Numbered from the stretch's first letter, positions 32,644 through 33,975 are shown. The stretch is 64,000 bases of DNA from an uncultured Bacilli bacterium (GCA_934086955.1 CAKOIN010000003.1:71271-135270), one strand, 5' to 3'. Notes: generated from the letters alone by a model not told the origin. Made by a program: numbers and translations.

Positions 32644-33144
32644 ATGAAAAATGATGTTATAGAGGCTGTTATAGAGATACCTTATAGAAGCCGAAACAAA
32701 TTTGAAATTAAAGATGGTAAAGTTAAACTTGATAGAGTTTTATATAGTGCTATGGGTTACCCTGCTGAATATGGTTTTATAGATAAAACATTAGCAAATG
32801 ATGGTGATCCTCTTGATATTCTTGTTATTGGAACAGAACCAACATATCCAGGATGTATTATTCCAGCAAGAGTAATAGGTGTATTAAAAATAATTGATAA
32901 TGGTTTTGAAGATTATAAAATTATATCAGTTGTAGATGTTGATCCAAGATATGATGAAATTAAGGAACTTAATGATTTATCTAAGTTTATATTAGATGAA
33001 ATAAGAAACTTTTTTGAAAATTATAAAGTTCTTCAAAAAATAAATGTTCAAGTTGAAAAATATTATCCTAAGAATAAAGCTTTGAAAATTATTGAACAAT
33101 CTAAAAAGAATTATTTAAATACTATTAATGAAAGAAATGATTAA
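32644..33144 (+). CDS. ppa: inorganic pyrophosphatase (family I)
   Basis: EIPYRSRNKFE...DGDPLDILV motifs. Start moved to ATG 32644 (RBS taggagag); the track model 32572 adds an implausible N-terminus. Confidence 0.8.
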   Translation: MKNDVIEAVIEIPYRSRNKFEIKDGKVKLDRVLYSAMGYPAEYGFIDKTLANDGDPLDILVIGTEPTYPGCIIPARVIGVLKIIDNGFEDYKIISVVDVDPRYDEIKELNDLSKFILDEIRNFFENYKVLQKINVQVEKYYPKNKALKIIEQSKKNYLNTINERND

Positions 33145-33637
33145 TTTGAATAGAAAAGGATTTACATTGATTGAATTACTTGCTGTAATAGCAATATTAG
33201 GTTTACTTGTAACAACAGTTAGTATAGCTGTTACTAAGATTTATAATGATAATGTTAATAAAACAATGATAGTTCAAAATAATAAAGTTATGGAGGCAGC
33301 TAGTATATATTTAAATGATAAGTGTCTTTTACCACTTGATGGAGCTGTTTGCCCTGATTCTTATACTGAAGGCCAATATATATGCTTAGAAGATTTGACT
33401 GAAAATGTTAAAGAAAATTATTTAACTGAAGTAACATATAAAAATGATGTATGTAGTGGTATAGTTGTTTTTGAAAAAAATGCTGAGGGTGAAAATGTTG
33501 AAACTGTTTCATATTTATTTTGTGGATATGATAGTTCAAAAAATACATTTAATTATGCGACTAATCCATCATTGAATTTAAGTAAATATCCAAGATGTAA
33601 TGTTAAAAAGAATGGTTCACCAAGTGGTGGTGTGTGA
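33128..33637 (+). CDS. short type IV pilin-like protein (paralog of the N-domain of the giant proteins); possibly a truncated remnant
   Basis: NRKG|FTLIELLAVIAILGLLVTTVSIAVTKIYNDN... is about 60% identical to the N-domain of 22841. Ends ...SPSGGV* exactly where the paralog has SGGVSGEDETTTT. Confidence 0.7.
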   Translation: MKEMINLNRKGFTLIELLAVIAILGLLVTTVSIAVTKIYNDNVNKTMIVQNNKVMEAASIYLNDKCLLPLDGAVCPDSYTEGQYICLEDLTENVKENYLTEVTYKNDVCSGIVVFEKNAEGENVETVSYLFCGYDSSKNTFNYATNPSLNLSKYPRCNVKKNGSPSGGV

Positions 33638-33714
33638 CTACTACAACAACTAGAAAAACTCCAAATATACCTGATAATTGTACTGTTTAAGCTAAAAATG
33701 ATAATTATCATTTA

Positions 33715-33975
33715 ATGTATTGTGTTTCTGATGGTACTGGAGATAGTGTGGTTGGCAAAGAAAAGTCTATTGGAATTTGTAATAATGTTTCTTATTGTGT
33801 GTATGCCGTTAATGCATCATCTGATAGCAAAGCTCAATACATACTTTACTATAATAATAATGGAACTTCGGATGGTTATGATTTGGTTAGTGCTGTTTCA
33901 AATAAAATTATTACTACTTGTGGTTTAGTTGATCTTGGTTATAATATTGTATGTAAAACTATATCTGCATCATAG
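33715..33975 (+). CDS. hypothetical small Cys-containing protein (may be a relic of the downstream part of a degraded paralog)
   Basis: 86-aa ORF in the same frame as the poly-Thr relic (33637-33690). No DUF285 repeats. Confidence 0.3.
   Translation: MYCVSDGTGDSVVGKEKSIGICNNVSYCVYAVNASSDSKAQYILYYNNNGTSDGYDLVSAVSNKIITTCGLVDLGYNIVCKTISAS

Follow-up and report, generated by a model that had tools for sequence, protein, structure and literature searches.

The stretch of DNA analyzed here (the window) comprises 64,000 nucleotides (nt) of an uncultured Bacilli bacterium (GCA_934086955.1, CAKOIN010000003.1:71271-135270), and its positions 33128-33975 very probably represent a truncated allele of a gene for a bimodular type IV pilin, the remaining pilin module of which would still be usable on its own. 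The ancestral gene, encoding 294-301 amino acids (aa), would have consisted of a pilin module with a class III signal peptide, a flexible threonine-rich linker and a fast-evolving module of about 100 aa with six cysteines. Insertion of GT into the short repeat GGTGGTGTG, where the pilin module ends, would have led to an immediate TGA, and the untranslated remainder would then have gained a change of AAA to TAA and a 69-nt deletion in the linker. The product would be the complete pilin module with a disordered stub of 12 residues. Its gene would be transcribed together with the inorganic pyrophosphatase gene ppa; a prepilin peptidase from another part of the genome would cleave the product, which could still be built into a type IV filament, although without a tail module to expose there. 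The same species has a second allele, which would have lost the module independently, by a different frameshift 3-6 nt away. The truncation as such is ordinary gene decay and not a new kind of system.

Three genes of the window have the N-terminus of type IV prepilins (PF07963); the gene under study is the third of them (copy 3), and copies 1 and 2 are giant fusions to DUF285 repeats (Table 1). The product of copy 3 ends in ...KKNGSPSGGV (...YPRCNVKKNGSPSGGV), followed by TGA at 33635-33637. The relic frame, which is shifted by -1/+2 relative to copy 3, starts at 33637, encodes a threonine-rich stretch and is interrupted by TAA at 33688-33690, after which come AKNDNYHL and an open reading frame (ORF) of 86 codons (33715-33975). 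A preliminary description of the sequence had given this arrangement (SPSGGV and stop, shifted Thr linker, stop, 86-aa ORF) accurately in every detail, including the equivalent position of paralog copy 1 (624 aa), which reads ...RCNISGGVSGEDETTTTTTTTTTKPVDTACTY, and the lack of DUF285 repeats in the 86-aa ORF, which yielded no Pfam match. Its proposal that a longer pilin fusion had been broken by a frameshift exactly at the junction of N-domain and linker, with the Thr run and the 86-aa ORF as relics of the longer gene, is borne out by intact alleles of the same species. These read through the junction as SPSGGV-TTTTTRKT...PNIPDNCTVKAKNDNYHLVYCVSDG...TISAS with exactly one GT fewer, which rules out a chance resemblance of the Thr run to the linker of the paralog. 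A sequencing error does not explain the frameshift: exactly this 169-aa product is recorded for 44 contigs of independently assembled human-gut samples, and gene callers place the 86-aa ORF beside it. At the junction, loci L001-L004 match the window without a difference. A reading of the TGA under genetic code 4 was ruled out, since TGA acts as a stop in the window, where it closes eight of the 50 long ORFs, and the housekeeping genes are all intact under translation table 11.

In comparison with the closest intact allele, the window carries three lesions: the additional GT in GGTGGTGTG, which shifts the frame and creates the TGA at 33635-33637, the change of AAA to TAA at 33688, and a 69-nt (23-codon) deletion in the linker, located between 33660 and 33661 relative to L011, L017 and L021. 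The TAA, a second and independent lesion, is present in all window-type alleles at a codon that is AAA or GAA in the intact ones. The 69 nt are missing in the window, L001-L004 and L008-L010 and are kept in the intact alleles and in L011, which is also frameshifted. The order of events is accordingly an intact gene, followed by GT insertion and AAA to TAA change (in either order), followed by the linker deletion.

Regarding the intact alleles, a word-indexed homologue search with the 169-aa protein gave only short proteins and missed both the giants of the window and the intact alleles of 294-301 aa, although these belong to the same 90% cluster; by itself this search would have pointed to a pilin that is short by nature. 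An exhaustive HMMER search with the relic, the cluster listing and collection scans brought up the intact forms. About 13 metagenome contigs carry an intact allele of 294-301 aa at the same locus (ppa - pilin - holin-like - lgt), and the intact long version that the preliminary description had proposed to look for in related genomes is thus present in syntenic position. Those of the same species are P0043 (298 aa, nine contigs), P0044 (294 aa, three contigs), P0047 (301 aa) and L017, with flanks 98.0-99.4% identical to the window. P0043, P0044 and P0047 belong to the 90% cluster of the 169-aa protein, and their loci (L018-L026) are syntenic; L017, found in a metagenome scan, shares 98% identity with the window along 2 kb, and its frame is uninterrupted (SPSGGVTTTTTRKTTTTTTSTTRKISTDPVNGGNGTTPNIPDNCTVKAKNDNYHLVYCVSDG...TISAS). 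The encoded proteins share one layout, i.e., pilin module, Thr-rich linker and a six-cysteine module of about 100 aa.

Two sister species were represented as well, and only intact genes were present among their loci seen. P0035 (297 aa), found by an exhaustive profile search with the relic ORF, is 93% identical to copy 3 over its first approximately 160 residues, continues with STTKKPTTRTTTTTTRTTTK and ends in a C-terminal domain 48% identical to the relic; its locus (L012/L013) is arranged as rpmF - DUF285 pilin - ppa - pilin - holin-like - lgt - trxB. A scan of species-representative genomes yielded L015, an intact 318-aa orthologue with the junction ...SSGGSTTTTTNK..., and L014 (labelled 'MAG: Mycoplasmatota bacterium', i.e., a metagenome-assembled genome), which is frameshifted. 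Over 1,230 nt of the holin-like gene and lgt, the identity to the window was 99.4% for L018 and 98.0% for L021 (both intact), 98.0% for the frameshifted L014, 95.0% for L012 (intact, sister species) and 93.7% for L015 (intact, sister species). From flank identities of 98.0-99.4% it follows that intact and broken alleles segregate within one species-level population. The window itself (G+C content 25%) stems from a low-GC MAG under the NCBI label Mycoplasmatota/Tenericutes, and from knowledge of the phylum we take the host to be single-membraned.

Two truncated alleles evidently arose by different, independent frameshifts. The junction reads CCAAGTGGTGGTGTGACTACTACA in the intact alleles and CCAAGTGGTGGTGTGTGACTACTACA in the window type, which has exactly one extra GT; in the 162-aa type (L007, L014 and L016) it reads CCAAGTGGTGTGTAGTCACTACA, in which GTGACTAC is inverted to GTAGTCAC and one G is deleted. 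The two lesions are 3-6 nt apart, have the same frame relation and lead to an immediate stop (TGA and TAG, respectively). The exact 8-bp micro-inversion beside a 1-nt deletion in the 162-aa allele (L007:1034-1100; L014:5864-5930; L016:1364-1430) is unusual in its own right and lies at the same spot as the GT insertion of the window. A shared ancestral frameshift with continued selection on the relic frame had been suggested by a ratio of non-synonymous to synonymous substitution rates (dN/dS) of 0.2 between the two relics. It was rejected, because the junctions are two different lesions and each relic has a nearly identical intact parent haplotype; the ratio of 0.2 results from the divergence of the P0043-like and P0044-like intact parents.

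The part of copy 3 that is left is a recognizable and complete pilin module. Its class III signal peptide (NRKG/FTLIELLAVIAILGLLV, or over a longer stretch NRKG/FTLIELLAVIAILGLLVTTV, the slash marking the cleavage site) has Phe at +1 and Glu at +5 (G/FTLIE), with a hydrophilic leader up to the Gly and about 20 hydrophobic residues, as in type IV pilins, and the PF07963 score is 32.7 bits (cut-off 21.2). The family profile matches solved pilins over alpha1 with E-values from 3e-11 to 1e-5, including PilE1 of Streptococcus sanguinis (8pfb). All six cysteines common to the paralogs are retained and are followed by the 12-residue stub NVKKNGSPSGGV. An AlphaFold2 model of the module (predicted local distance difference test score, pLDDT, 81) has a 54-residue helix (8-61) and strands at 101-111, 117-129 and 134-138; disorder is predicted for the last seven residues (157-163) of the truncated product, which places the new stop just beyond the structured module. 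Stand-alone members of the family (P0004-P0011, 140-181 aa) end 2-8 residues past the same last cysteine. The dN/dS of the N-module between alleles is 0.10-0.16.

The start of the gene allows several readings. ATG 33128 overlaps the ppa stop (33142-33144), and ATG 33137 and TTG 33146 are alternative starts; in the intact alleles, gene callers put the start on the codon after the ppa stop (gene 3001 after ppa 2499-2999), which by alignment corresponds to TTG 33146 in the window, giving MNRKG/F. In every related locus ppa lies directly 5' of the pilin gene, and the two look like one transcription unit. The hairpin at 33983-34008 probably terminated transcription of the full-length gene in the ancestor; if so, the transcript would include the relic as an untranslated 3' tail.

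On the most likely reading, a bare, complete pilin module would still be made and be usable as a stand-alone protein. A functional product is favored by the completeness of the module, which stops where short members of the family stop naturally, by the tight coupling of ppa and pilin gene, kept in all loci, by the promoter-like site 5' of ppa, by the hairpin after the relic, and by the occurrence of two independent frameshifts at one boundary. In addition, no lesion of the pilin module was present among the listed cluster members (approximately 320 contigs); all lesions of both truncated alleles lie in the junction or the linker. Several observations weigh against this conclusion. The low dN/dS of the N-module mostly predates the two frameshifts, and within the 169-aa clade the N-module has no synonymous and one to four non-synonymous differences, too few to show purifying selection. 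A Foldseek search of the N-module model against PDB gave no match with an E-value below 1. No prepilin peptidase, PilB or PilC was found by Pfam among the window ORFs of at least 100 aa, nor among the Pfam annotations of L001, and only the distant relative L005 shows a connection to pilus machinery (T2SSF and Peptidase_A24 beside a 46%-identical pilin). That the 169-aa product is made, processed and assembled is what we infer. For the suggestion that the short product acts as the polymerising major subunit nothing was found in support, and the intact ancestor has the architecture of a modular pilin.

As an alternative, the gene could be dead in its entirety, a pseudogene whose truncated module is not made or is functionless, the alleles having spread by drift or hitch-hiking. 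This is unlikely, yet it is the alternative that deserves most weight. Further lesions followed the frameshift (the TAA and the 69-nt deletion), the N-module differences within the 169-aa clade are all non-synonymous, and the context of the start codon is weak and ambiguous. However, the later lesions are all 3' of the new stop, and the listed alleles show no lesion in the 500-nt pilin module, although the A7, A6 and (AT)4 tracts in it are more prone to slippage than (GT)2. Moreover, no more than 6 nt separate the two frameshifts, which lie just past the last structured residue, and the tight ppa-pilin junction is retained.

Regarding allele frequencies, counts were taken from the 15 listed members of the 27-member cluster (note that contigs are not independent strains). 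The 162/171-aa allele was present on approximately 262 contigs, the 169-aa allele on approximately 47 and the intact alleles on approximately 10 (approximately 13 with further look-ups and L017), i.e., truncated and intact alleles occur at roughly 20:1. An adaptive loss of the tail module, in which bare alleles, arisen at least twice and present on about 95% of contigs, would be selected, for example, by secretory immunoglobulin A or by phage receptor use while balancing selection keeps the intact alleles, is a doubtful proposition and somewhat less credible than a dead gene.

Far less credible is a switch, by which the full-length protein would be produced either through reversible slippage in (GGT)2(GT)n (phase variation) or through programmed -1 frameshifting. 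Such a mechanism could account for the presence of (GT)2 and (GT)3 alleles together in one species, for the downstream frame of the 162-aa allele, which is open to the normal stop, for the indels of the relic frame, which are all in-frame (3, 6 and 69 nt), and for the low dN/dS between the two relics. However, known contingency repeats are much longer than this tract, and the TAA 17 codons downstream in every (GT)3 allele means that the C-module is not restorable in the window. The two OFF alleles have different lesions that cannot be interconverted, the in-frame indels are located in triplet repeats (AAT and ACN runs), and the low dN/dS is explained by the parent haplotypes, as given above. 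As to programmed frameshifting, GGT GTG TGA contains no slippery site of the type X XXY YYZ, and in intact alleles one frame covers the whole fusion.

The remainder of the gene downstream of the junction is a young relic and not a gene. In the window, only six of the 255 nt of the relic C-module (two synonymous and four non-synonymous differences) deviate from the nearest intact allele (L021), and the relic of L014 differs from L018 to the same extent (6/255 nt, again two synonymous and four non-synonymous). With so few differences the truncations are young, and an open relic frame needs no selection to explain it. The 86-aa ORF lacks a signal peptide and keeps five of the six cysteines that are conserved across species in the C-module. 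It begins with ATG in the window, but L008-L011 have GTG at this position and L007 and L014 have GTA, a non-start codon, for which reason gene callers report versions of 75, 86 or 102 aa. That the 86-aa ORF is an independent small gene is hardly conceivable: it is called on more than 40 contigs and is open in all alleles, but it makes up the last two-thirds of a module that intact alleles encode in one frame with the pilin, has an odd number of cysteines and a start that varies with allele and caller, and is not preceded by a sequence resembling a Shine-Dalgarno motif before 33715.

A search with the relic against 1.84 billion representatives gave four matches, among which P0035 was the sole significant relative outside the relic's own cluster; two weaker matches were short, repetitive and located in unrelated proteins. 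The C-module had no Pfam match, and its profile had no match to PDB sequences. An AlphaFold2 model of full-length P0035, based on a shallow alignment, had a pLDDT of 46, with parts of the C-module at approximately 70-80, and is too weak to classify; a Foldseek search of this model against PDB gave nothing below an E-value of 0.1. Between the two intact sister-species orthologues the C-module is 47% identical (dN 0.46, dN/dS 0.8), whereas in the same pair the pilin module is 83% identical and the flanking genes are 93-99% identical (dN 0.007-0.036). The C-module is accordingly estimated to evolve more than ten times faster than its neighbors, and such hypervariability fits a surface part exposed to pressure from the host or from phages. 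In L008 (264-524), as well as in L009 and L010, the relic has a patch of 13 residues, IYAADAAVSGIGR, in place of VYAVNASSDSKAQ, with an almost identical pilin module upstream; this patch looks like a recombined hypervariable loop.

A remnant of a giant DUF285 pilin paralog, finally, is refuted by the missing part itself, which in intact alleles and orthologues is a different module of about 100 aa with six cysteines: despite the pilin module common to the giants, the similar boundary motif (SGGV and a Thr run) and a true case of this kind in the distant relative L005 (pilin with T11-TAA, then PVGVVCTFKGELVQGTEYVYGLYTYR; compare ACTYNGELVKGAEFVSGQYTYRYKQE in copy 1), neither 33715-33972 nor the intact alleles match DUF285, and no nucleotide or protein similarity to the giants exists past the linker. 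The preliminary description, which had considered a degraded giant paralog, was thus right about the truncation of a longer fusion; the ancestor was not a DUF285 giant, however, but a separate bimodular pilin of about 298 aa, and the alignment it had proposed of the copy 3 relic to the giants shows no similarity in protein or nucleotide sequence beyond the Thr run and linker.

Table 1. Features of the window in and around the truncated pilin gene.
Feature	Position	Strand	Remarks
Paralog copy 1, pilin module, Thr10 linker and DUF285 repeats, 624 aa	22841-24715	+	Pilin module 64% identical to copy 3
Paralog copy 2, pilin module and about nine DUF285 stretches, 945 aa	29729-32566	+	Pilin module 47% identical to copy 3
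Terminator-like hairpin closing the DUF285 giant copy 2	32561-32581		
Promoter-like site TTGAAA-17-TATAAT 5' of ppa	32594-32622	+	Consensus scan only, 11/12 matches
ppa, inorganic pyrophosphatase, 166 aa from ATG 32644	32644-33144	+	Stop 33142-33144
Truncated pilin gene (copy 3), 169 aa from ATG 33128	33128-33637	+	PF07963, alignments, AlphaFold2
GTGTGTG tract bearing the causal lesion	33630-33636	+	GTGTG in intact alleles, GGTGGTGTGACT
Relic of the Thr-rich linker in the -1 frame, reads TTTTTRKTPNIPDNCTV	33637-33687	+	Includes first Cys of the C-module
TAA in the relic frame	33688-33690	+	AAA (Lys) or GAA (Glu) in intact alleles
Relic of the six-cysteine C-terminal module (about 100 aa), enclosing the 86-aa ORF 33715-33975	33691-33975	+	
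A/U hairpin of 11 bp, then UUUAUUUU	33983-34008	+	-8.5 kcal/mol, z -1.7; weak

Several further observations concern the surroundings of the locus. The gene for a membrane protein of the Phage_holin_4_2 family (34050-34472) is 98-100% identical across all four lineages with a dN/dS of approximately 0.02, in sharp contrast to the adjoining hypervariable module. The DUF285 giant 5' of ppa varies strongly in length and integrity among strains: the orthologue of copy 2 is split into two ORFs in L019 (1-2421), has 679 aa in L012 (2847-4886) as against 945-954 aa elsewhere, and is absent in L015 (4363-4847). Besides lgt (34476-35288), the window has a second, shorter Lgt paralog (PF01790) of 227 aa at 42392-43075. 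The S-adenosylmethionine synthetase ORF at 58591-59532 (313 aa) matches the N-terminal domain only partially (profile positions 38-80 of 99) and may have an upstream start or be truncated. Eight ORFs of 217-640 aa yielded no Pfam match at E-values of 1e-5 or lower (386-1129, 1842-2495, 4545-5258, 6906-8828, 41544-42398, 46795-47709, 48442-49935 and 60534-61232).

For annotation purposes, the 169-aa gene should be labelled as a truncated bimodular-pilin allele and the 86-, 75- or 102-aa 'hypothetical protein' on hundreds of contigs as a relic. The locus offers a natural, dated case in which a modular pilin has shed, at the linker, the module grafted onto it, with the ancestor and two independent derivatives still segregating in one uncultured gut species. 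Of modest interest are that lesions recurred at the boundary, that truncated alleles are so frequent, and that the hypervariable six-cysteine module is uncharacterised. If the adaptive interpretation were true, populations of this Mycoplasmatota species in the human gut would keep a polymorphism of module-bearing and bare pilins under pressure on the exposed hypervariable module.

Among known systems, pilC of Neisseria has a poly-G tract by which a pilus adhesin is switched ON and OFF through frameshifting. In the present locus, likewise, a frameshift in a short repeat removes an adhesin-like part while pilin production can continue. The tract here, however, is only (GT)2-3, and the OFF alleles have irreversible lesions resulting from different mutations; the locus is an allelic polymorphism rather than a demonstrated reversible switch. 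A literature search on frameshifting and phase variation among minor pilins yielded only papers on Neisseria and PilY1.

The DUF285 (PF03382) pilin fusions of the window belong to the same pilin family and share the six cysteines and the boundary motif (copy 1 also the Thr linker), but their C-terminal part is unrelated, and the broken gene never carried DUF285 repeats. A search of the literature on DUF285 together with pilins yielded nothing relevant. In L005 (2946-3560), a 179-aa pilin (46% identical) lies directly after the T2SSF and prepilin peptidase genes and ends in T11 followed by an in-frame TAA; the subsequent PVGVVCTFKGELVQGTEYVYGLYTYR is the start of the post-linker region of DUF285 giants, fading into non-coding sequence, and L005 is thus an independent case of a modular pilin cut at the Thr linker. 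The truncated product is similar in size to the stand-alone short pilins P0004-P0011 and ends near the same last cysteine; these are natively short (35-45% identity), whereas the window protein became short recently and has a linker stub and downstream relics.

A further comparison is with the modular pilins, for which more than 1,200 proteins in 264 architectures have been described and which are argued to be adhesive, minor and probably tip-located subunits (Raynaud et al. 2021, PMC8179133). PilB (pilin and vWA) and PilC (pilin and lectin) of Streptococcus sanguinis have the layout shared by the intact alleles, i.e., pilin module, linker and an extra C-terminal module. The present family differs from them in that the linker is a long Thr-rich stretch and not a short loop, and in that the extra module is a six-cysteine domain of about 100 aa without a Pfam or PDB relative, seen only in a small clade. 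Such a module is carried by P0043, P0044, P0047, L017, P0035 and L015, but not by the allele of the window, which stops at 33637, has lost the module and is no longer modular.

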